NCBI GenBank assembly: GCA_038059695.1
Contig: JBBTIZ010000023.1
Span: 13,427 to 77,426, forward strand
Direction: 5' to 3'
Length of the DNA: 64,000 nt
Source of the DNA: Planctomycetota bacterium
Lineage (GTDB): Bacteria > Planctomycetota > MHYJ01 > JACQXL01
Below, piece by piece: positions 3,157 through 37,003 of the stretch; positions within the stretch are counted from its first letter, which is position 1; each line of letters opens with the position of its first letter. The notes under the pieces were generated by a model, which searched no databases, had not been told where the DNA came from, and was given only the letters and a program-made list of their open reading frames with translations. Position numbers and translations under genes: made by a program.

Positions 3157-4233
3157 ATGGAATTCAATAAAATTCTGATAGTTCGGCTGAGCGCCATCGG
3201 CGATGTGATTAACACCATCCCGACCCTGATGGCCTTGAGGCAGAATTTCCCGAAGTGTCTTATCGGCTGGGTGGTTGAGGACAAAGCCAAGGATTTGCTG
3301 ACCGACCTGTCTGCCGCGCCGGGTACGGCACAGGCAGGTCTCCCGCTTCTTGATAAGGTCTTCGTCTGGCACAGGCGCGGCAACCAGAAAATAACCGATA
3401 CACTCGGCCTTATCCAGGAATTACGCCGGCATAAGTTTGATATAGCCATTGATTTCCAAGGGAATCTTAAGAGCGGGCTGATTACCTCATTAAGCGGCGC
3501 CAAGACCCGGGTCGGAATGAAACCGGCCAAGGAAGGCAACACGCTTTTTACTAATCTCAAGGTGGCCCTGCCTGATAAAAAGATAAACCGGGTGGAACGG
3601 AATCTTTATATCCTTAACCAACTCGGCATAAATACGGACATTCTTGACTGGAAGAAAACCCCGGCCCTATCCGGCCCGGCCGATGAATCATATATTGATA
3701 AATTCCTGGCCGCCCACAATTCGTCCAAAAGACCCGTAATCATCCTGCATCCGGGCACGAGTGAATTCGGTTTATTCAAACGTTGGGCGCCGGCCAAATA
3801 CGCCCAATTGGCTGACCGGCTGGCCGAAGAACTCAAAGCCATTTGCATCATCTCCTGGGCCGGTAAGGAGAAATCACTGGCTGAATCCATTGCCAAGCAG
3901 ATGAGTCATAAACCATTGATTTTCCCTGAACAGTTATCGCTCAATAAATTAGCGGCTTTAATAAAACGTTCCAGGTTATTTATCGGCAGTGATTCCGCGC
4001 CTCTGCATCTGGCCAACCTGCTGGGAGTTAATGTGCTGGGGCTTTACGGACCCAAAGACCCGGCTGTTTACAGCCCTTTTCTGCCTCCTAATGCCGCGCA
4101 CCAGGCCGTAATCATCAGGAAGGATTTACCCTGCAGTCCCTGCCAAAAGCGGAGATGCGATAAACCCGTGTGTATGGAATCAATCACCGTGGAAGATGTG
4201 TTCCAGAAATCCATTCAGATGATGGGAAAGTAA
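3157..4233 (+). CDS. ADP-heptose:LPS heptosyltransferase (GT9 family)
   Basis: ILIVRLSAIGDVINTIPTL at the N-terminus and GSDSAPLHLANLLGVNVLGLYGP near the C-terminus are GT9 hallmarks. Confidence 0.75.
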   Translation: MEFNKILIVRLSAIGDVINTIPTLMALRQNFPKCLIGWVVEDKAKDLLTDLSAAPGTAQAGLPLLDKVFVWHRRGNQKITDTLGLIQELRRHKFDIAIDFQGNLKSGLITSLSGAKTRVGMKPAKEGNTLFTNLKVALPDKKINRVERNLYILNQLGINTDILDWKKTPALSGPADESYIDKFLAAHNSSKRPVIILHPGTSEFGLFKRWAPAKYAQLADRLAEELKAICIISWAGKEKSLAESIAKQMSHKPLIFPEQLSLNKLAALIKRSRLFIGSDSAPLHLANLLGVNVLGLYGPKDPAVYSPFLPPNAAHQAVIIRKDLPCSPCQKRRCDKPVCMESITVEDVFQKSIQMMGK

Positions 4234-13260: not shown

Positions 13261-16200
13261 TGAAATACATATTTTATCCACAAAAAGTTATTATTTTGTT
13301 TCTGTTATTTCTTTCTGCAACTTTGTCTTATACCGATGTCCCGTCGGGTCGCCCAGCGGACGACAAAACGGAAGAGGCGGAAAACGAGGCCTCAATAAAG
13401 CCGGAAATAATATTTGAGGAGGAATTGCCAACCGATGTAGGGAAACTCATCGAGGTGATCTATCGGTGGAAAGAGCCTCAGAGCAGCGTTGACGAGATTG
13501 TCTATAAGCGCCTGATTAAGGTCCAGGGCGAACGGCTGGGTTGTTATTACTATTCAATGTATGCCCGCTGCAAGGATGATATCCTGGTGGAAAAAACGTC
13601 TTCACCCAATGCCTGGACGCCTGAACGCGTTTTAATAAGCGGAAAGAATGTTTCTGTCGCCGCATATAAAGGAGTGATTGAGCGGAGTGAGAGCAAAAAC
13701 TTCAGGATTATTTATTACCAGCAAACGCCCTTTGGTTTGTTGAGATTGGGCGAAGTTAGACGTTCAAGCGATGAGTTTATTGCGGAGATTAAGTTTGTCA
13801 GGTGTATCGCCTCTGAAGTTGGCAAAGATACTCCGCCTACTTTATGGCATATCAGCGCTTTTGTGTCCGGGTCCCTGGCGCTCTTTGATTATTTCAATCC
13901 CAAAGAGGAAAAGAAGAATCACGCGCCGGTTGCGGACTTTCGCGCCATCCCAATTACCGGCACCGTTAATACCAGTTTCTATTTTGACGCCTCAATATCA
14001 ACCGATGCGGATGAGCCGAGTTCAGCCGGGCTCTTGGTCCGCTGGGATTTGGACGGCGACAGCAACTGGGACAACGTATTTACCTTTGACAAGATTACCA
14101 CCACCTCGTTTGCCCTCTCTGGGTCTCATGCCATCGGTATCCAGGTACGCGACCGACAGGGCGCGTTTTCCACTATTACCAAGACCGTTACGACCATCGC
14201 AGTCGGTCCCGCCTTGGCGGGATCAACGCCCCATCCGATGTTCCGTAATACCATCACTCATACCGGTGTTTCTATTTATAACGGGCCGGTGGTTACTACC
14301 ACGAAATGGACGACGCTGACCGGCGAACGGATAGAGTCATCGCCTTCTATCGCCTCGGACGGGACCATCTATATCGGCTCTTATGACGGCGGTCTATACG
14401 CCCTGAGCCCGACTACCGGAAGCACTCTCTGGACCAGTCCTTTGGCCGGCGTGATACATTCATCCGCTGCCATTGCCACAGACGGCACGATTTATACCGG
14501 CGCAGGCAATAACCTCTATGCAATTAACCCGGTAAACGGCAACCAATATTGGTCATACGATACGGGCAGTTTAGTTCGTTCGTCGCCGGTGATTGACTCG
14601 GACGGAACGATTTATATCGGCTCGGTTAATAACAATCTTTATGCGGTCAATCCGGACGGCAGTTTCAAGTGGTCATTTGCCACCGGCGGGCAAATCTGGT
14701 CATCACCGGCCATCGGGCCCGACGGCACCATCTACGTTGGTTCCCTGGATAATAAACTCTATGCCATAAACCAGAACAGCACCCTTAAATGGAGTTTTGC
14801 CACCGGCGGCGGGATTTATTCATCTCCGGCGGTGGATAATTCCAGCGTGGTTTATGTGGGCAGTTGGGACGGTTCGTTCTACGCCATAAATTCCAACGGC
14901 ACTCTGAAATGGAGTATTCCAACCGGCGGGCAAATCTGGTCTTCAGCGGCATTGGACGCAGGAAATGTTTATTTCGGTTCGGACGACGATAAGTTGTATT
15001 GCCGCAATGCCTCAGATGGTACGCCTCAATGGAGTGCGACCTGCGGTAGCAATGTCCGCTCTTCGCCCACCATAGATGCAGGAGGACAGATTTATTTCGG
15101 GACTGATGACGGTAAACTCTACGGCCTGAATTCCGCAGGCGGTAACCTGTCTGCGGATTGGCCCATTGACTTATCAGGCGCCATCACACCGATTCGCTCC
15201 TCGGTTGCGATTGCCAATGCCGTAACGCCGACTCTGTATGTCGGTTCTTATGACCGTAAAATCTATGCCATAGGCGCCGCAACGGTTGACCCGGCTGACC
15301 TGACCATTCAAAAATATGCCAACAAGACACAGGTATCTATCGGCGAAGTAGTAACCTACAAGATTGTGATTACCAACCGGGGCGTGGACCCGACCTCGTC
15401 AACCGCCACCACGGTCATAGACAGCATTCCGGCCGGATTCAAATATCTCAAGGGCTCAAGCAGATTGTCCGGCGTGGCCCAACCAGACCCGATTGGCAGC
15501 GACGCCTTAACATTTGATGTCGGGCATTTCACACCCGGGCTTTCCAAAACCCTGACTTACCAACTGATAGTGGGAAGTGGCGTTGCTCCAGGCCGCTATG
15601 TCAACCGGGCATACGCTCGATATTATTATGACAAGCCGCCGGTGACCGAAGCCGTTACGGCCATTGCCAAGAGCGAGGTCTGGGTTGTGCCTGACCCGCT
15701 ATTCGACCTGGGCACAATTATCGGCAAGGTCTTTTGGGATAAGAACGCCAACGGCATGCAGGATAAAGGCGAAGACGGTTACAACGTGGTCCAAATTATA
15801 ATGGAGGACGGCACTTTAATCACTACGGATAAAAACGGTAGTTATCATATTCCGGGCGTGAGACCGGGCGCCCATATCCTGCATCTCAAGGATATACCCG
15901 CATCCTGGATAACCACTGATAGTCCGTGTCTGGTGCGGGTAACACCGGGATTATTAGTCAAAGCGAATTTCGGAATAAAGCCGATGGACCAGGAGCCGCC
16001 GGATTCACCATTCCCGTTCTTTAACGATTTAACCTTTGTTTTATTGGGCGAAGGCACAATAGACAGCGTTTCCACCAACGGACGCGATGCAAGTAAACAG
16101 GATAAGAACGTCAAGGAGGGCAACCGTTTAAATGGACGAGTGGCCTACTATCTTACCGGCAAGATAGAAAATAAGTTCACGATTGTCTCATCGCTGGATA

Positions 16201-22998: not shown

Positions 22999-23056
22999 CA
23001 GATATACACAGATAAATGCGAACACGAATGGCACGAATAGAACGAATATCACGAAT
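22999..23056. repeat. Array of short direct repeats (cacagat x3, then NNcgaat x4), one of the CACGAAT-family arrays
   Basis: cacagatgcacacagatatacacagataaatgcgaacacgaatggcacgaatagaacgaatatcacgaat. Related arrays at 25871-25966, 35522-35640 and 52663-52722. Confidence 0.6.
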
Positions 23057-25870: not shown

Positions 25871-25966
25871 TTAACACGAATCACACGAATCCGGCGAATC
25901 GCACGAATAATCCATTAATTCATTCGTGTCATTCGTTCCCATTCGTCCCATTCGTGTTCGTATTTT
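25871..25966. repeat. CACGAAT-family array with palindromic arrangement (4 forward, then about 4 inverted copies)
   Basis: cacgaatcacacgaatccggcgaatcgcacgaat ... attcgtgtcattcgttcccattcgtcccattcgtg, in the intergenic region between the two cassette genes. Confidence 0.6.
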
Positions 25967-27052: not shown

Positions 27053-27330
27053 AGTTGTTTCCACCTATTTTGTTATTTAAATGACTAACTGCCAAACAGG
27101 CATCAAGCAGATACTCATAGAAGACAAGCCGGGGCCGGGGCAAGCGGCATGACTCACCTGCGCCCGATCATGCGCCCTGGTCTTGTGTCCTGCTAATAAC
27201 ATACCGAATAGTAAGGAACTCTTCAAAGAGGGACGAACGATTACAGATTGTTTAAGATTGGCTGTTGCAACCGATTGTATTCTAAGGAGTTATGCGAGAC
27301 GGTCAAAATGAACGAAAATGAAATATGAAA

Positions 27331-28473
27331 TTATTCATCCGTAGATGGATGCGTATTGAGAGATTCCTTCAATCTATTAATATTCGGGCGGGCTTTACCA
27401 GAAGATGTTGGAGCAACGATTTCAATATCCTTTAAAAATATCGGGCATAGATAACCCTTTTTACTATCAAGACGTCCGATTTCTGGTAATCCGGCTGATA
27501 CTAATACCTTGTTTATTTTGCTGATTGCCCCGCTGATACGGTTTTTATAGTTTTCCGGCTCAAGCTTATAATCCTCCATTTTCCAGCCACACGCCTTGAC
27601 AATATCTTCTAAAGAAATATAAGTATTCTTGGTCTTGCCGGAAACCTTATCAAGTATTCTTAATAGGATTTTATGCGTCTGGTTTATTAATCCTATTAGC
27701 TGTTTATCCTTGTATTGGAATACGCTTTTGGTCAGGTTTATTTTTGATTTCTTTGCCTTGCTGAACGAAATGATTTTCTCCTTCTGGCTGATTTTAGTAA
27801 GGATATCCTGGCTGATAACCCAATTCTTATCGCCGAAAGCGTCTGCAAAATTGACATAATGAATATTCCTATCCTCTAATATCCGGCGAGTATTTTGGCT
27901 AATCTTATCAAAGAAAGGCATCAGGACAATCCCTGCCTGGTATCTCGCTATTTGGGATGGTATGCTCAAAAGCAGTGTCCCGGCTGTCTTGGGATTACTG
28001 CACAGGGCCAGAATAATCGCGGTTGACTTTCCCCTGACATTCAAAACGCCGATAAAATAAAGCCGGTCGTCAAGTTTGTCATAGTTACCAGCCAGATTAT
28101 TATCATTACGGATTAGTTCTACGAATGCCCTAATATTAAAGGAATACCTGCATAGGTCGTTTTTATCAATAGAAACCATCCCTTCAGATGGATGTATCAT
28201 ACAAAATGCCTCAAGGTTTCCGTCCTGTTTTTTGACGGATAATGTGCAACCGTGTGGACAGCGGGGGGATTTAATATTTTCGATTACACCATCGGAATGG
28301 TTAATATAACTTAAAATATTCTTCTTGGTCAAATCGGCACAGTTTGATGGAGAAATGGCGAGCAGTTCTTTTTTGCTAAATAAGGAATTAGGGCTTTTCT
28401 CTATCTGCTTTAAAAGGAACTTTATCATTTTCTTTAATGCCGATATCTTCCAGGTACTTATTGATAATTTCAT
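27331..28473 (-). CDS. Hypothetical protein (380 aa) in the Type III R-M island, last gene of the co-oriented operon
   Basis: AT-rich codon usage matching the island. Cys/His cluster SPRCPHGCTL...AFCMIHP. Degenerate P-loop-like GVLNVRGKST. Real start possibly the internal Met MIKFLL. Confidence 0.45.
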   Translation of the reverse strand: MKLSISTWKISALKKMIKFLLKQIEKSPNSLFSKKELLAISPSNCADLTKKNILSYINHSDGVIENIKSPRCPHGCTLSVKKQDGNLEAFCMIHPSEGMVSIDKNDLCRYSFNIRAFVELIRNDNNLAGNYDKLDDRLYFIGVLNVRGKSTAIILALCSNPKTAGTLLLSIPSQIARYQAGIVLMPFFDKISQNTRRILEDRNIHYVNFADAFGDKNWVISQDILTKISQKEKIISFSKAKKSKINLTKSVFQYKDKQLIGLINQTHKILLRILDKVSGKTKNTYISLEDIVKACGWKMEDYKLEPENYKNRISGAISKINKVLVSAGLPEIGRLDSKKGYLCPIFLKDIEIVAPTSSGKARPNINRLKESLNTHPSTDE

Positions 28474-29545
28474 TATATTTTTTGCTTCCCAAGTCAGTAC
28501 TGCTGGGCGGGGTTATTTCAAAACTCACTTCTATTGCTTTTCCATTAACCTGTAATATAAATAGAAATTTAGCCGAAGTCAATTCGCCTGAATCTATCCC
28601 TAATCCGGCAATGTCATTATTAAATGTCTGGTTAATATCAGTTGAATCTATGCGAATAGTCGGTTTTGTAGAACCATTTAGGACCATAGTTACGGCAGTT
28701 AATTTAACCGACCGTATTGTCTCATTGACGGGGAAACTAAAATCATCTTCTTGAAGTGGTTTTAGGATATAGGTGTCATCTCTATCAGGGCGCATCGCTT
28801 GACTTTTGTCACAGATAATAATATCGGCAAAAACATCAATATATTTTTCTCTGTCTTTTCGAAGTGAAGTATGTACGGAAAAAGATGTTTTCCCGTCGTA
28901 TTGCAGAATATCCTCATAAGCGGGTCTAAAAATAATGGTTTCTGTATTTACCTCTTTGTCTTCATCTTTCAAGACCAATTGATGCTTTTTATTTTTCCCG
29001 CGTATTACTGCAATAATCAATTTGCCATTTTCCTCATAATGCCTGATAATACAATCCTTCCCTTGACGCCTGTCTTTAAACCATGCTTTAATCTGCGCCT
29101 TGAACTGTTCCATTTTTCCTGGCGTTATTGTAAAGCTGGTACATTCCATTTTATGTCGGCTCAATTTATTGCCTGAGCCATAAAGCAGGTAATAATCGCT
29201 GAGATGGTTATAGGCCGGTTTACTCTTCAGGAATATACCGAGTATCAATTGGTGTTGGTTTTCTTTCCCCGTGGACGCAATATGATATTTCTGGATTACA
29301 TCCGGGATAAAACCAGTCATCGTTTTAGCAATATCATAAAGACGTGCTATTTCTTCTTCAATCGTATCTTTCAGGTCGGTATCCGTGAGATTATCTAAAT
29401 ATGCTATAACCGTGCTAAAAGGCGCCGTTGATTCTTTTAAGTTAAGCGTAATATGATACTTCCTAAAATATTCCTCTAGAATGTCTGGAGTTGATATTGC
29501 CGCATCCAAAAACTCAGTTACCTTGGTAGAACGAAACTTACCCAT
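28388..29545 (-). CDS. Hypothetical protein (385 aa) immediately downstream of res, same strand
   Basis: No recognisable motif. Tightly packed after res (res ends 29565). Confidence 0.45.
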   Translation of the reverse strand: MGKFRSTKVTEFLDAAISTPDILEEYFRKYHITLNLKESTAPFSTVIAYLDNLTDTDLKDTIEEEIARLYDIAKTMTGFIPDVIQKYHIASTGKENQHQLILGIFLKSKPAYNHLSDYYLLYGSGNKLSRHKMECTSFTITPGKMEQFKAQIKAWFKDRRQGKDCIIRHYEENGKLIIAVIRGKNKKHQLVLKDEDKEVNTETIIFRPAYEDILQYDGKTSFSVHTSLRKDREKYIDVFADIIICDKSQAMRPDRDDTYILKPLQEDDFSFPVNETIRSVKLTAVTMVLNGSTKPTIRIDSTDINQTFNNDIAGLGIDSGELTSAKFLFILQVNGKAIEVSFEITPPSSTDLGSKKYNEIINKYLEDIGIKENDKVPFKADREKP

Positions 29546-29564
29546 TTTAGGCCCCCTTTATAAC

Positions 29565-31946
29565 TCAACCTAATCTTAATTCTTCCCAATCGCTCCAGTC
29601 ATTCCGCAAGCATTTTTCCCAATCGTATTGTGCTTTTTGGTTGATTTTCCAAATGCCATTTACCGGAACGACTATTCCGCCGAAGAGTTTCTTACCCTTT
29701 TTAGTCTGTTCTTTGATATACTCCTGCAATCGTTCTGATTTTGCCTTGGTATAACTGCTACCCCCCCAGTCGCCCATATCCTTTGTCTCAAAAACGCCTA
29801 TTCTTCCATCCGCAAACCGGACTAAATAATCAGGATAGAATGTATGGACCACTCCGGTTGGATATTCATATTTAATGCCGAAATAATCCTTCTTGTTTTC
29901 GCCGTTCTTCCACCACCAAACGATGTTTTTAGCATTCGTTTTATCCTCTAAAAACCTCTCGAATTCCCTTTCGGGATTAGTGCGGTCAATATTCAAATAG
30001 CAATTATCATAGACATAGTTTTTAACCTTGAGCAATTCGTCGGTATGCGCGTTATAAAAACTCTCGTTTGGTATCTCGAAATCATAAATCTGTTCGCTCT
30101 CCTCAACACGCTTGGCAATCTCTTTCTCCCGAACAGTTTTATACTCCTCAACCGCTTTTAACAGAATACGCTCAAAGATATCCCTATTGCCGTTATGGAC
30201 AAAGATTTTCTGTATCATCATCGCTTCTTCATCCCAATCCTTAGCGCCCAGATGTCGCATAAACCAGACGTAAATCGTATTCTTGACCTTCGGCACCGAC
30301 CGCTTAATATTTTTGAATGAGCCAAGATGCTCCTTAATAATCTGCACAAATACCGCATCCAGATCGTTACCGGCAATATTCAAACTGGCTTTCTGGGCAG
30401 AATCTATTTCGCCCTCTAATTCGTCAAAAGTCTTGCCATCAATCTTTGCATCTCGGATAATTTCCTGCTGGTATTTCTTTAAATCAACAACAATACCTTT
30501 TTTCTCAAGCAGTTTCTTATTCTGGTCAAAGAATTCCCTTTGTTTAATGCCAAACTCCGCGCAGGCAACCTTCTCAAACACCGGGTCAAAACTCGAGGTG
30601 ATATCTCCGTAATCAGCCCGCGATTTATAGTAGGAGCTAAGCTTTATATCCTTATAACAATCTTTAAGCGTCCCCTTTAGATGCTTGATGATATTCGGAT
30701 TATATTCTTCCTTTTTGACAATAATGCTCTGGACGTTGGTGTATATATATCCGGTATTCAGGGCTTCGCTTGGGTAATGCCTTAATTCCGGCATCCGCAG
30801 TATCCGGCCCACGGTCTGGATTTCAAAGGTCTCGCTGTGTGATTCCCGGAATTTGACCAGAATATGCGCCCGGGGACAATCCCATCCCGTATCAACTACT
30901 TGCTTGAATACAAAAAATTCTATTATATTATCCGGTTCGGCAATCGATTCTATTTCTTCTATTGCTGGATAGCCATGAATTCGAATTGCTAATTTCTTAT
31001 TTGCTTCAGCAATACCTTTCTTCGCCAAAAATTCTTCAACAGCTTTTTTCTTGTCATCTCCGGCGTCGGCATTCGGTATCTGTATTAAAGCCAGCGGATT
31101 AATATTTGCCCCCTCCGCCTCAAATAATCTCTTTAATTCCAACCTCTTCCGATATGCTGCCTCTAAAACTACTTCCTGCGAATCGGTTTCATTATTGGCA
31201 ATTTTATCTATCTTCTCATTAATGATTATTTCTTTCTTTATTATACCTGCATCAATGACATCTTTCGGCTCTACACAAACATACCCGGCAATCCCCCGCT
31301 TTTCATCTCTGCGGTCAGGAATAAGTTTTGGCGTGGCGCTCATTTCCAGAATAATATCGGCGTTTATCTCGTCCCGCAATTCGTTGGTTCGTTCAGCCGT
31401 GGCGCCGATATGGCTTTCGTCTATAATCATTATTACCTTCCGTTGTTCCCGTGTTCTGGTAAGGACATCCCTGAAATTTATCTTTTCTCCGTCCTTCATC
31501 AGGATGTTTTTCCAATCGCCGGTTTCCTTATCTTTACTCCGTAATTTCTCCCAGTTAACCACTACAACCTCGTTACGGACAATCCGTTCCCTGCCGCCGG
31601 AAAATTCATCCTCAACCAAAGACACCCTCGGCGCTCCGCCGTAAATCTTTTCTAAAGCGCGTTTACTCTGAAGATGTAATTCGCCCTTACCAATACTCAC
31701 CCAAAGAAAACAAATATCCTCATCTGGTAATTCTTTAATAATCTCCTCAATAAACTTAGCTGTCATCAGGGTCTTGCCGCTTCCGGTCGGGGCCTGGAAA
31801 ACACAGACCTTTTTCATTCCCTCGTTAGCCAGCAGTTTCTTAACGGCGGTAAGCAATTGCTCAATGGCTGTTTCCTGATACGGCTTAAGGTCAATATTCA
31901 TAAATATCCTCGTATATATCCAGAATCTTCTGCGGAATCGGCTCAA
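29565..31946 (-). CDS. res: Type III restriction enzyme Res subunit (SF2 helicase plus C-terminal PD-(D/E)xK nuclease)
   Basis: Walker A QAPTGSGKT, DEAH-like IIDESH, helicase motif VI region, C-terminal nuclease motif PDYLVRF...GVFETKD. Probable start at the MNIDLK Met. Confidence 0.8.
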   Translation of the reverse strand: MSRFRRRFWIYTRIFMNIDLKPYQETAIEQLLTAVKKLLANEGMKKVCVFQAPTGSGKTLMTAKFIEEIIKELPDEDICFLWVSIGKGELHLQSKRALEKIYGGAPRVSLVEDEFSGGRERIVRNEVVVVNWEKLRSKDKETGDWKNILMKDGEKINFRDVLTRTREQRKVIMIIDESHIGATAERTNELRDEINADIILEMSATPKLIPDRRDEKRGIAGYVCVEPKDVIDAGIIKKEIIINEKIDKIANNETDSQEVVLEAAYRKRLELKRLFEAEGANINPLALIQIPNADAGDDKKKAVEEFLAKKGIAEANKKLAIRIHGYPAIEEIESIAEPDNIIEFFVFKQVVDTGWDCPRAHILVKFRESHSETFEIQTVGRILRMPELRHYPSEALNTGYIYTNVQSIIVKKEEYNPNIIKHLKGTLKDCYKDIKLSSYYKSRADYGDITSSFDPVFEKVACAEFGIKQREFFDQNKKLLEKKGIVVDLKKYQQEIIRDAKIDGKTFDELEGEIDSAQKASLNIAGNDLDAVFVQIIKEHLGSFKNIKRSVPKVKNTIYVWFMRHLGAKDWDEEAMMIQKIFVHNGNRDIFERILLKAVEEYKTVREKEIAKRVEESEQIYDFEIPNESFYNAHTDELLKVKNYVYDNCYLNIDRTNPEREFERFLEDKTNAKNIVWWWKNGENKKDYFGIKYEYPTGVVHTFYPDYLVRFADGRIGVFETKDMGDWGGSSYTKAKSERLQEYIKEQTKKGKKLFGGIVVPVNGIWKINQKAQYDWEKCLRNDWSDWEELRLG

Positions 31947-33405
31947 GTGTTACACCTTTCCAATCATGAAAATCATTTTTATCCAGCCCGAACGGGTCAA
32001 GTTCAAAGCAATAGAGAGTTTTCTCGCCTGTCATTTTATCTAATTCTTTCTTGAGTGATTTTAATTCAGTCCGGTCAGGCGAATAATATACTGCCATAAT
32101 ACGCTCACCCTGCTCAAAGATACGGTAATCGTCCGTCTTCTTCTTCTCCTCAAAAATACCCTCTCTGAGGCAAAGCATCTCAGTGCATTCCTTGGTAATA
32201 CGGATTTTCAGGGTGTCCTTGCTAAAAGTCCGCTTCACAAAGGCGGTCTTGAAATATTTAAGTTCATCACTATGATCAGAAAGGCGAGGGTAGCCACTCA
32301 TGCATTTTTTTATTCGTGGATAGCATACTTCTTCGGCAATTTCATTTTCATTATTTGTACACAATATAAATTTTCTATTTCCCCCATCTTTTCTATTAAG
32401 TTCTAAAACCGCATGACCAGTTGTCCCTGAACCAGCGAAAAAATCTAAAACTATCGCTTCTTTATTATCATCTATACATATTTGTAATGTATCAAAAACC
32501 GCGTATAGCGATTTGGGATAATCAAAAGACCTTGATTTTCCAAGTATTTTTTGTAGCAATATTGTTCCATGAGATGAAGCATCATATTTTGGATCAGCCC
32601 ATACCGTTTTCGGCTTTCTGCCACCCTTTATCCTATCTTTTGCGAAAACTGTATACTTGCCATTATTCTCTTTAATAACAATTTCAGTTTCAGCTTTCTC
32701 CGTAAAACTCACCTTACCCCACCGCCAAACCCTTTTTCCATCATGTGAATCAATCGGTAAAATTTTAACCAAATCTTTATTCTTTTCTTCTTCTACTGAA
32801 ACTCGTTTTGTTTTTTTATTGTAATATATCGGATAGAAAAGATTAGGCCTTTTATCGGGAGTTGAATTAGACCCTGTTCTTTTTAGGGGTAGTAATCGGT
32901 AAAAAGATATTTCGTCTTCTAATGGAAAACCCTCGACCTGTTCTTCTGTTAGCTTTAATTTATTAGTTTTAGTAACCTGGGTATTTAGTCCATAGAAAAG
33001 AGCGTATTCGTGAGAGGTTGCAAAATATTTATCGTCGCTTCTTCCTCGAGGGTTGTGCATGATAGTAACCACCCCAAGTTTATTACCCTCCCCAAAAATT
33101 TCGTTCATCAATAAATTGAGATTTCCAATTTCATAGTCATCAATAGTTACAATTATTATTCCTTCGTCTTTTAATAAATTTTTAGCAAGGCGCAAGCGTT
33201 TGCTCATAAACGAAAGCCATTTGCTGTGCTTATAGGTGTCATCTTTTTCTACATACTGATTGTTGTATTTCCAGCTCTTATTACCCGTATTGTATGGTGG
33301 GTCAATATAGATAACATCAATCTTGCCTTGATGGGTATAGTTCAAAACAGATAAGGCGTGGTAATTATCGCCTTCTATACAGGATGTTAACTGGTTTAGA
33401 GTCAC
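31891..33405 (-). CDS. mod: Type III DNA methyltransferase Mod (beta-class N6A/N4C MTase), main reading frame
   Basis: Motif IV DPPY (YIDPPYNTG) precedes motif I FDFFAGSGTTGHAV, which is the beta-class order. This frame begins at a GTG immediately after a C9 homopolymer. Confidence 0.8.
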   Translation of the reverse strand: MTLNQLTSCIEGDNYHALSVLNYTHQGKIDVIYIDPPYNTGNKSWKYNNQYVEKDDTYKHSKWLSFMSKRLRLAKNLLKDEGIIIVTIDDYEIGNLNLLMNEIFGEGNKLGVVTIMHNPRGRSDDKYFATSHEYALFYGLNTQVTKTNKLKLTEEQVEGFPLEDEISFYRLLPLKRTGSNSTPDKRPNLFYPIYYNKKTKRVSVEEEKNKDLVKILPIDSHDGKRVWRWGKVSFTEKAETEIVIKENNGKYTVFAKDRIKGGRKPKTVWADPKYDASSHGTILLQKILGKSRSFDYPKSLYAVFDTLQICIDDNKEAIVLDFFAGSGTTGHAVLELNRKDGGNRKFILCTNNENEIAEEVCYPRIKKCMSGYPRLSDHSDELKYFKTAFVKRTFSKDTLKIRITKECTEMLCLREGIFEEKKKTDDYRIFEQGERIMAVYYSPDRTELKSLKKELDKMTGEKTLYCFELDPFGLDKNDFHDWKGVTLEPIPQKILDIYEDIYEY

Positions 33406-33596
33406 TGGGGGGGGGCGGTAATGGCTTTGTTCTTTACTTCCTTAAGAATCGGCAGGGCGTTTTCTGAATCTTTCTCAAACTGTTCCTTGGTATGTTCCTC
33501 ATCCCAGACCAAGCCGTATTTTTTGCGGCTTTCTAATTTCTCTATTCTCTTAATTAATTCTTTCTTATCCCAATCCTGATAGGTATTCTTCGGCAT
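33402..33596 (-). CDS. mod: N-terminal fragment of Mod (64 aa), separated from the main mod frame by a homopolymer frameshift
   Basis: Peptide ...YGLVWDEEH... resembles Type III Mod N-termini. Ends ...AITAPPQ-stop, reading through the C9 tract. One extra C fuses it in-frame to MTLNQL... Confidence 0.6.
   Translation of the reverse strand: MPKNTYQDWDKKELIKRIEKLESRKKYGLVWDEEHTKEQFEKDSENALPILKEVKNKAITAPPQ
33407..33415. repeat. Homopolymeric G9 (C9 on the coding strand) tract at the mod frameshift site
   Basis: gtcactgggggggggcggtaatgg. C10 (or C7) would give one continuous mod ORF of about 568 aa. Confidence 0.85.
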
Positions 33597-33764
33597 AAAT
33601 ATTAATAATAAACATCTTTTTCAGGAAAGCAACAAATAACCTGCGTTTTTAAGTAGGGTATAGGATTAATACACACCAGCACACCATATCATAAACACTA
33701 TATGATGGCGCGCTATGGGGTAGGTATGGTTATTGTTTACACCATACGGCCAAGCCCTGTATTA

Positions 33765-33874
33765 TACATCAGCCGCGCATAATCTGTATATCAGCCGTGC
33801 GCATGTTATATATCAGCCGGTGACAAGTTATATATCAGCCGTGCGTATAGTGTATATCAGCCGTGGGCGTAGTG
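33765..33874. repeat. Five tandem 22-bp direct repeats (consensus TATCAGCCGTGCGyaTaGTgTA) in the mod-operon upstream region
   Basis: tacatcagccgcgcataatctgta / tatcagccgtgcgcatgttata / tatcagccggtgacaagttata / tatcagccgtgcgtatagtgta / tatcagccgtgggcgtagtgta. Confidence 0.8.
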
Positions 33875-34066
33875 TACACGATTATTGCGCTTACTCTATA
33901 TAAGCTAAGCGGTTACTGTATATGGCTCATGCCCTCACCACCAGTCAGGGAGTCTTGAGGGGTACTACCCCCCACCCTCCCCCCTCCCCCTGTTGGGAAA
34001 GTGAAAAGATGAGAGTGGAAAGATGAAAGCTTGAGAAAATCAGGAAACACGGATTGCGCAGGTGTT

Positions 34067-35521: not shown

Positions 35522-35640
35522 ACTAATTCTAACACGAATGTCACGAATAGAGCGAATGGCACGAATAAATTCGTGTGATTAGTCGCATTCGCTTCGCGGT
35601 CTCTTCGAGTTCGTGTGATTCGTGTTCTATACTTAATCCT
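35522..35640. repeat. CACGAAT-family array with palindromic arrangement between gcvPA and gcvPB
   Basis: cacgaatgtcacgaatagagcgaatggcacgaataaattcgtgtgatt...gagttcgtgtgattcgtgtt. Confidence 0.6.
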
Positions 35641-37003
35641 TAATTGTGTTTACGAGTTTATCAATCTCCTCTTTCGTGTTCATTTCGGTCACACACAGGA
35701 GCATGGCGTTCTTTAGTTTGGGATAAAATCTCTTTAAGGCCAGGCCGCCGATGATATTGCTTTTCAATAGTTTCTTGTTAATCTGCTCCGGATTCCTGGG
35801 ACATTCGATAACGAATTCGTTGAAATACGGGCCGCTGAACAGGAGTTTGAAGCCCGGGATTTTGGATATCTGGTCAGCCGCGCAGTGCGCCTTTTGTAGA
35901 TTGAGTTCAGCCACCTGCTTCAGGCCGGTCTTGCCCACGGCGGACAGGTAGATGGCCGTCCGGATGGCGCAGAGGGCCTGGTTGGAACAGATGTTGGACG
36001 TGGCCTTTTCCCGCCTGATATGCTGTTCCCGGGTGGACAGGGTCAGGACGAACCCGCGCCGGCCTTTGGCGTCTGTGGTCTCGCCGACTATCCGGCCGGG
36101 CATCTTGCGGATATGGGCCATCTTGGTAGCCATAAAACCCAGATGCGGGCCGCCGAATGACATCCGGTTGCCTAACGGCTGGGCATCGCCCACAACTATG
36201 TCAACTCCGTAATCGCCGGGCGGCTTGAGCAATCCTAAGGAAATCGGATTGACCACCGCTATCAAAACAACCCCCTTATATTCCCCCTTTGTTAAGGGGG
36301 ATTGAGGGGGTTGTCTCCGGATGATTTCAGCAATTTTATCCGCCGGTTCGATGATGCCGAAGAAATTGGGCGATTGATAAGCCACGCAGGCCGTATTGCT
36401 ATCTAATACTTTTTCTAATGCCTCTACTGAGGTGACGCCATCGGAGAAATCTATTTCTATGATATTGATATCCAAGTCCTCCAGCCAGGCCTTGACCGTA
36501 GCCCGGTATTCCGGATGGATGGTCTTGGAGATAATGACCTTCTTTTTGTTGGTGGTGTGGAGCGCCATGAGGATGGCCTCGGCCAAAGCGGTCGCGCCGT
36601 CATAGAGCGATGCGTTGGACACCTCCATGCCGGTCAGCTGGCACATCATGGTCTGGTATTCAAAAATAGTGGTCAGCGCGCCCTGGCTGGTCTCGGGCTG
36701 GTACGGGGTATAGGCCGTATAGAATTCGCTCCGAGCAGCCAGGTGGTCCACCACGGCCGGGATAAAGTGGTTGTAACAGCCCGCGCCCAGGAAAGACGGG
36801 GTGTTGGCGACATTGGTATTTTTGTCTGCCAGTTCGGCCAGTAGTTTGGTGGCTTCCATCTCGCTTAGCGGGGCCGGCAGGGCCAGGGGTTTAGTCAGAT
36901 GTAATTCTTTGGGGATGCTGGAAAACAGGTCTTCCAGGTTGGCCACATTGGCCGCGGCCAGCATTTCCCGGATGTCAGTATCAGTATGCGGAATATAGGG
37001 CAT
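35633..37003 (-). CDS. gcvPA: Glycine dehydrogenase (decarboxylating) subunit 1
   Basis: Typical GcvPA sequence (ISLGLLKPPGDYGVDIVVGDAQPLG). Contains a short hairpin-encoding insertion near 36271-36320. Confidence 0.85.
   Translation of the reverse strand: MPYIPHTDTDIREMLAAANVANLEDLFSSIPKELHLTKPLALPAPLSEMEATKLLAELADKNTNVANTPSFLGAGCYNHFIPAVVDHLAARSEFYTAYTPYQPETSQGALTTIFEYQTMMCQLTGMEVSNASLYDGATALAEAILMALHTTNKKKVIISKTIHPEYRATVKAWLEDLDINIIEIDFSDGVTSVEALEKVLDSNTACVAYQSPNFFGIIEPADKIAEIIRRQPPQSPLTKGEYKGVVLIAVVNPISLGLLKPPGDYGVDIVVGDAQPLGNRMSFGGPHLGFMATKMAHIRKMPGRIVGETTDAKGRRGFVLTLSTREQHIRREKATSNICSNQALCAIRTAIYLSAVGKTGLKQVAELNLQKAHCAADQISKIPGFKLLFSGPYFNEFVIECPRNPEQINKKLLKSNIIGGLALKRFYPKLKNAMLLCVTEMNTKEEIDKLVNTIKD

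Follow-up and report, generated by a model that had tools for sequence, protein, structure and literature searches.

A predicted restriction-modification (R-M) system of Type III lies within a 64-kb stretch of the genome of a free-living groundwater Planctomycetota bacterium, an uncultured organism represented by a metagenome-assembled genome (MAG; positions 13,427 to 77,426 of contig JBBTIZ010000023.1, 64,000 nucleotides in all, hereafter the window). Its methyltransferase gene, mod, is broken into two open reading frames (ORFs) at a homopolymeric tract of nine cytosines (C9), and a second frameshift follows 27 nt from the tract. The parts of the locus are as follows, in positions of the window:

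33402 to 33596, minus strand: 64-aa ORF, the N-terminal part of Mod, annotated as hypothetical protein MEK7309587.1
33407 to 33415, minus strand: C9 homopolymer (G9 on the plus strand), placed where a variable loop joins the N-terminal region of Mod to its methyltransferase core
31891 to 33405, minus strand: 504-aa ORF starting at GTG, the Mod core, with motif IV (DPPY) and motif I (FAGSGTT)
33380 to 33406, minus strand: 27-nt segment, read as SDSKPVNIL (native) in the C8/C11 frame and as (V)TLNQLTSC in the frame of the GTG-started ORF and of C10 or C7
33379, minus strand: extra T (CTG-T-ATA GAA GGC), a second +1 frameshift relative to all homologues in DNA alignments, outside any repeat
29565 to 31901, minus strand: res gene, 778 aa, intact; SF2 helicase domain (ResIII), PD...ETK motif at the C-terminus

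On the minus strand the tract reads ...AAA GCC ATT ACC GCC CCC CCC CAG TGA, its nine Cs corresponding to plus-strand positions 33407-33415. The 64-aa ORF (33596 to 33402) stops two codons past the tract, and the GTG that opens the 504-aa ORF (33405-33403) shares bases with its TGA stop (33404-33402); the NCBI annotation carries a 484-aa version of the core ORF (MEK7309586.1). An earlier note on this DNA, made from the sequence alone, had described a short ORF ending through C9 with a GTG-started main ORF behind it, and both the coordinates and the sequence agree with that description. Its arithmetic was also right: when the tract is edited in silico, C10 gives a single ORF of 568 aa, C7 a single ORF of 567 aa, and C8, C9, C11 and C12 all leave the gene split.

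The assignment of the split gene to Type III mod, likewise proposed earlier, is well supported. Taken as one joined protein, the two ORFs match N6_N4_Mtase in Pfam (1.5e-29), MTase_III in PADLOC (1.4e-88) and, among solved structures, the Mod subunits Mbo45V (7dsu, 7.7e-59) and EcoP15I (4zcf, 1.3e-25) as well as 6k0w (9e-39). The top Foldseek matches, obtained with a model of an 85%-identical homologue (P0002) as query, are all Type III Mod subunits. DPPY lies at residues 99-102 of the joined protein and FFAGSGTT at 386-393; this order, motif IV N-terminal to motif I (FxGxG) with the target-recognition region between them, is that of the beta-class N6-adenine methyltransferases. The first 11 nt of res lie within the end of mod. 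Its product matches ResIII in Pfam (8.4e-20) and REase_III in PADLOC (1.3e-15), and the gene is judged intact because the protein is 70% identical end to end with the Res partner of P0002; the PDY...ETKD nuclease motif was spotted by eye in the alignment rather than by a profile. Judged by sequence, the mod-res pair is a Type III R-M system, for which methylation and ATP-dependent cleavage are predicted.

The earlier note also held that the mod frame resumes at the GTG immediately after the tract, and here comparison with homologues led to a different result. For its first nine codons the GTG-started ORF is not in the native frame, owing to the second +1 indel, the T at 33379. Full-length homologues (n = 27, 562-694 aa) span both ORFs, and a single ORF is therefore the ancestral state. 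Their consensus across the junction is ...KEIK-(T/A)D(P/S)(S/A)KP(T/V)NIL-IEGDNYHAL. The window does code for SDSKPVNIL straight after the tract, but only in the C8/C11 frame, in which YRRR and a stop codon follow; IEGDNYHAL stands in a third frame. In DNA alignments with four homologues, the window has seven extra nucleotides at the tract, which amount to six in-frame nucleotides plus one extra, and one extra T at 33379 between CTG and ATA. Deleting one C together with this T in silico yields an uninterrupted Mod of 567 aa, in agreement with the family over its whole length. The native allele was thus C8 without the T at 33379, the C8 run coding for Ala-Pro-Pro as a two-codon insertion in the variable loop, and the present allele is this native form plus two +1 insertions, with a tract one C longer than the native-frame length. 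C10 (+3 in total) and C7 (net 0) close the frame only because the 27 nt at 33380-33406 are then read in the wrong register.

The segment affected is a conserved one. Before IEGDNY, 116 homologues share a P-x-N-[IVL]-[LF] motif conserved at 92-98%: P at position -5 in 107 of the 116, N at -3 in 107 (H in the other nine), [IVL] at -2 in 114 and [LF] at -1 in 113. At these four positions the window's native frame codes for P, N, I and L; the C10/C7 frame codes for Q, T, S and C, and the strand becomes NQLTSC. In an AF2 model of P0002 (pLDDT 82.6), TNILIE at residues 66-71 is a core beta-strand (pLDDT ~90) whose first half consists of the conserved residues, the C9 tract falls in the loop that precedes this strand (residues 59-65), and an upstream strand (residues 47-52) lies in the part that is coded by the 64-aa ORF in the window. 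In the solved Mbo45V Mod, the aligned counterpart of the SDSKPVNIL segment is KPTNTL. Since C10 and C7 both replace the P-x-N-[IVL]-[LF] strand, a single slip does not restore the native protein; no tract length alone is predicted to do so, the native methyltransferase requiring C8 and loss of the T. Whatever the route to a product, whether tract slippage, re-initiation at the GTG or transcriptional slippage, the core strand would be rewritten according to the coding frames and the model.

Both indels recur in independent data. Three contigs from Hainich groundwater well H41 (L006, L007 and L008, with coverage of 64x, 66x and 5x) are separate metaSPAdes assemblies of separate Illumina libraries, from 0.2 µm filter replicates R1 and R3 (64-66x) and 0.1 µm replicate R3 (5x); the reads of every filter replicate, from Illumina NextSeq (2x150), went into a metaSPAdes assembly of their own (PMC8672522). 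C9, the T at 33379 and their flanks are identical in these three assemblies and the NCBI MAG contig, one of the four being a single-nucleotide polymorphism (SNP) variant, and over 6-9.5 kb the H41 contigs match the R-M island of the window exactly, save for one SNP in the low-coverage contig. The disruption of frame relative to intact orthologues is therefore reproducible. An artefact, in which the true gene is intact and the length of the homopolymer was miscalled, had been named as an alternative in the earlier note; homopolymers are generally error-prone and all the data come from one platform, NextSeq. However, a random miscall is excluded because the separate assemblies all carry C9, the agreement (at up to 66x) extends to a T that is not part of a homopolymer, and correcting the tract alone would leave the frameshift at that T. 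Sequencing or assembly error was rejected on these grounds as essentially ruled out, and we give it only a negligible probability.

Could the gene be split and yet be expressed? The GTGA stop/start overlap at 33405-33402 might let ribosomes that terminate after the 64-aa peptide re-initiate, with the 504-aa core working alone or together with that peptide. The downstream ORF is intact and conserved, and the arrangement is stable across assemblies, as this explanation would have it. Yet the overlap is the automatic outcome of CAGTGAC read in the shifted frame, and the sequence upstream of the GTG, ACCGCCCCCCCCC, contains no purine-rich ribosome-binding site. The core would moreover lack the structured strand 47-52 and begin with the scrambled one, and all close homologues are single polypeptides. 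Split expression is accordingly given little chance. Recoding, whereby transcriptional slippage on C9 or ribosomal frameshifting yields some full-length Mod, meets related objections. Runs of nine identical bases suffice for RNA polymerase slippage in other systems, although slippage is best documented for A/T runs, and a +1 mRNA (C10) would give the 568-aa ORF. Its product would carry the same scrambled strand, however, and no frameshift-stimulating context is evident. The native protein would take two separate +1 ribosomal shifts; double +1 frameshifting was dismissed, as it would demand two independent recoding events and no recognisable signals were found for them. Recoding seems highly improbable as the means by which this gene is read.

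The account that we favour, as probable rather than assured, is that mod has recently been inactivated, or that it was formerly an ON/OFF locus and became locked OFF by the T gained while it was OFF. A lineage-specific C8 run, coding for Ala-Pro-Pro in a surface loop, would have slipped to C9, the homopolymer acting as a mutational hot spot, and a T would have been inserted just before the conserved IEGDNY strand, 27 nt from the tract. In the alternative history, the gene would once have switched ON and OFF at the tract until the T, arriving in an OFF phase, locked it. In EcoP15I-type enzymes, Type III Res needs Mod for the recognition of its DNA target. Because of this dependence, loss of Mod would silence methylation and restriction together, and thus the whole system, without self-toxicity, which would explain how res can stay intact. 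The inactivation would be recent, since the rest of mod shows no decay, and the account is the most economical one because two events suffice, C8 to C9 and the gain of T. The sequences themselves show the two indels and their recurrence, the native frame, how strongly the motif is conserved, and that res is intact; that function was lost, in which order the events came and that the loss was neutral is inferred.

Several observations weigh against this account. Relaxed selection was looked for in the mod core, as extra stop codons or lost conserved residues, and was not detected: the 504-aa ORF deviates at four columns conserved at ≥90%, within the 0-10 seen in intact homologues. Together with the intact res, this absence of any positive sign of relaxed selection fits a very recent inactivation and gives it no positive support. 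The two indels, moreover, lie ~28 nt apart in a 1.7-kb gene, a closeness expected with a probability of ~3% if they were independent (our own estimate), which hints at a compensatory history in which selection restored the frame through the tract.

This is what would be expected if the locus were a working phase-variable one, in which slipped-strand mispairing interconverts C9 (OFF) and C10 or C7 (ON) and the enzyme remains active with a substituted segment of 9-10 residues; the T would then be one half of a compensated frameshift that became fixed and redefined the ON tract lengths. With nine bases, C9 at 33407-33415 reaches the operational threshold (≥9 bases) at which a mononucleotide run marks a Type III mod gene as potentially phase-variable, and environmental species are among the mod genes with simple-sequence repeats (SSRs) listed in the same survey (Atack et al., 2018; PMC5909438). 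Near the 5′ end of the gene, the tract occupies a variable surface loop, and the ORF downstream of it is intact and conserved, as is res. It is also the sole homopolymer of at least 8 bases in the 64-kb window. How unusual this makes it depends on the measure used. Dinucleotide-preserving shuffles average 1.9 G9/C9 matches per 64 kb, with one or more in 75 of 100 shuffles, and since they yield such runs so often, the run by itself is not improbable by chance; the C/G runs actually counted in the window (209, 30, 5, 1 and 0 for lengths 4 to 8) make the 9-mer an outlier. The two measures disagree, the shuffles rating C9 as unremarkable and the real run-length counts as a standout. The second-longest G/C run of the window (29761-29767, C7 on the plus strand and G7 in the coding sense) is inside res near its 3′ end and is in frame as assembled.

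Sequence comparisons give the working switch less encouragement. No tract-length variation was found across the four assemblies, all of which are C9. Exact look-ups of the C7, C8, C10 and C11 products and of the reconstructed native product found none of them in a collection of 15 billion proteins, a homology search with the N-terminal peptide recovered only the 64-aa form and unrelated truncated homologues and no allele of another tract length, and JGI metagenome contigs, scanned with a gapped DNA pattern, contained 0 matches. The heterogeneity that the earlier note had asked about was thus not encountered in other assemblies or in public proteins. These null results argue against frequent, selected switching; minority alleles are possible, as the searches rest on consensus sequences, with assemblies from one well and one sampling, in which minority tract lengths in the population are invisible, and to that extent the favoured account is weakened too. 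Among the short N-terminal fragments of other Mod-family members that are common in public assemblies (P0129-P0140), the point of truncation differs from one to the next. Some lie on contigs too long for truncation at a contig end, such as P0130 (87 aa, on a 346-kb contig), which suggests that the Mod family is frequently disrupted.

The comparison of homopolymer lengths in related genomes was no more favourable. At the tract site, a C/G run is missing from the closest homologues (65-85% identity); runs of at least 7 were absent from 5 close homologue loci and from 21 of 22 homologue loci in GTDB. The only locus with such a run, out of 27, is a gene of a Mycoplasmatales MAG (L031, OZ245334.1; 33% identity), in which an in-frame G9 (4060-4068) stands in the same Mod loop, 7 codons before LIIGDNY. 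An SSR conserved across the Mod family was rejected, since this one distant gene is all that carries it, and the repeat is not kept among alleles or close homologues. The Mycoplasmatales gene does show that the same loop can host such tracts, and counts for a switch and against simple decay to that extent.

As for the earlier proposal of a phase-variable mod, then, its starting point stands, in that the tract splits the gene and reaches nine nucleotides; the switch drawn from it is undercut by the second indel, by the scrambled strand and by the lack of the tract in the closest homologues. A working switch would have to alter four highly conserved positions of a core beta-strand whenever it is ON, and arriving at the present state by way of a compensated intermediate would take at least three mutational events, against two for simple decay. 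We regard it as unlikely. A more specific form, to which we give a slightly lower chance still, is a planctomycete contingency switch re-phased by a fixed compensating frameshift: C7 and C10 would be ON, the ancestral C8 would not, and the ON enzyme would tolerate its rewritten 9-residue strand. If true, it would amount to bet-hedging in an oligotrophic aquifer, either of restriction or methylation against phages or of a methylation-controlled regulon.

The surroundings of the split gene include a compositional island and repeats:

27200 to 33700, no strand assigned: low-GC island of ~6.5 kb with mod, res and two ORFs without a known family (35-44% GC, compared with 52-57% in the flanks)
27331 to 29545, minus strand: two ORFs that follow res within the island (385 aa and 365-380 aa)
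33761 to 33863, minus strand: region upstream of mod, in the 470-bp spacer between gcvPB and mod, with five direct repeats of CGGCTGATATAYA (33763-33863) at exact 22-bp spacing

The island adjoins gcvH-gcvPA-gcvPB, and its content fits horizontal acquisition of the R-M genes, as far as composition and gene distribution can tell. The Mod family is present in many unrelated phyla, and a search among GTDB species representatives returned homologues of ≤65% identity only, in unrelated phyla; the family is therefore taken to be horizontally mobile, and for the same reason no sister genome is available for comparing tract lengths. No direct or inverted repeats flank the island, and no tRNA or integrase gene was found at it, the only tRNAs in the window being at ~5.1 kb and 62 kb. 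Neither of the two ORFs downstream of res has a match in Pfam, NCBIfam or PADLOC, and they are not found beside the closest homologous mod-res pair (L001); they may be accessory or defence genes that travel with the R-M system. In gcvPA, L006 differs from the window by twelve SNPs within ~100 nt (36466-36569), and the adjoining R-M island is identical; this cluster in one H41 assembly points to co-existing strains or to a recombination tract in the population. Upstream of mod, the CGGCTGATATAYA repeats overlap the sole sigma-70-like promoter match (TATACA-18-TATAAT, 33790-33761). The array resembles an operator, iteron or element-end array, and no partner for it turned up at the island's opposite end. 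A G-rich stretch, gggggaggggggagggtggggggtag (33965-33990, minus strand), lies ~75 nt downstream of the gcvPB stop codon, near the upstream edge of the island. Elsewhere in the window, short tandem arrays of a 9-nt unit (CACGAATAG / ACACGAATC / CACGAATGG) recur between genes, at 23023-23056, 25874-25955 and 35533-35566.

If mod has indeed been inactivated, the locus is a case of ordinary R-M gene decay at a homopolymer hot spot, and its main use is as a warning. A phasevarion should not be declared merely because a split mod gene contains an SSR that reaches the threshold length; homologues must also be consulted for the reading frame that follows the repeat. Surveys that score SSR-containing mod genes as phase-variable would count the window gene although no tract length restores its native protein. 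Were the locus a working switch after all, it would bring SSR-based Type III switching to a non-host-associated phylum with large genomes, a possibility that can be tested from reads. The earlier note had placed such switches in host-adapted bacteria, a setting that does not apply to this free-living groundwater planctomycete; the selective rationale for phasevarions in organisms that are not host-associated is an open question raised in the survey itself (PMC5909438).

Set beside known systems, the gene shares features with four groups. Like the phase-variable modH, modJ and modL of H. pylori and modU of Campylobacter upsaliensis (PMC5909438), it has a G/C 9-mer in the mod ORF near its 5′ end, of a length that reaches the survey threshold, and tract length sets the reading frame. 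Unlike in them, no tract-length polymorphism was found, the tract is not common to homologues or alleles, the native protein is out of reach at every tract length because of the second frameshift, which lies outside any repeat, the host is a free-living groundwater bacterium, and the gene is known here from sequence. By these comparisons the window gene departs from phasevarions on two defining points, a native product at some tract length and retention of the repeat.

Frameshift-inactivated R-M genes, with pseudogenised mod or res, are common in bacterial genomes. The window gene resembles them in that its frame is broken relative to intact homologues, with one lesion at a homopolymer hot spot, in its position within an acquired low-GC island, and in the truncated members of the same Mod family that occur in public assemblies. 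It differs from them in having undergone no further decay (no stops, conserved sites kept, res intact), and the event is therefore very recent or the gene still under some selection. The Type III Mod structures Mbo45V (7DSU), 6K0W and EcoP15I (4ZCF) share with it the beta-class order, with DPPY before FxGxG, as well as similarity of sequence and fold and an alignable KPxNxLIxGxNY segment, whereas identity is only 18-28% and the N-terminal 45 residues cannot be aligned. The Mycoplasmatales homologue has a homopolymer of nine in the same loop; unlike the tract studied here, its G9 is in frame (ON) as assembled, and it belongs, at 33% identity, to a small-genome Mollicute. Small-genome Mollicutes are organisms in which such switches are well known, and it is plausible that this homologue is a genuine phase-variable mod gene. 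The window gene itself adds a new, uncharacterised member to a known class, namely Type III mod genes in which an SSR is combined with a frameshift.

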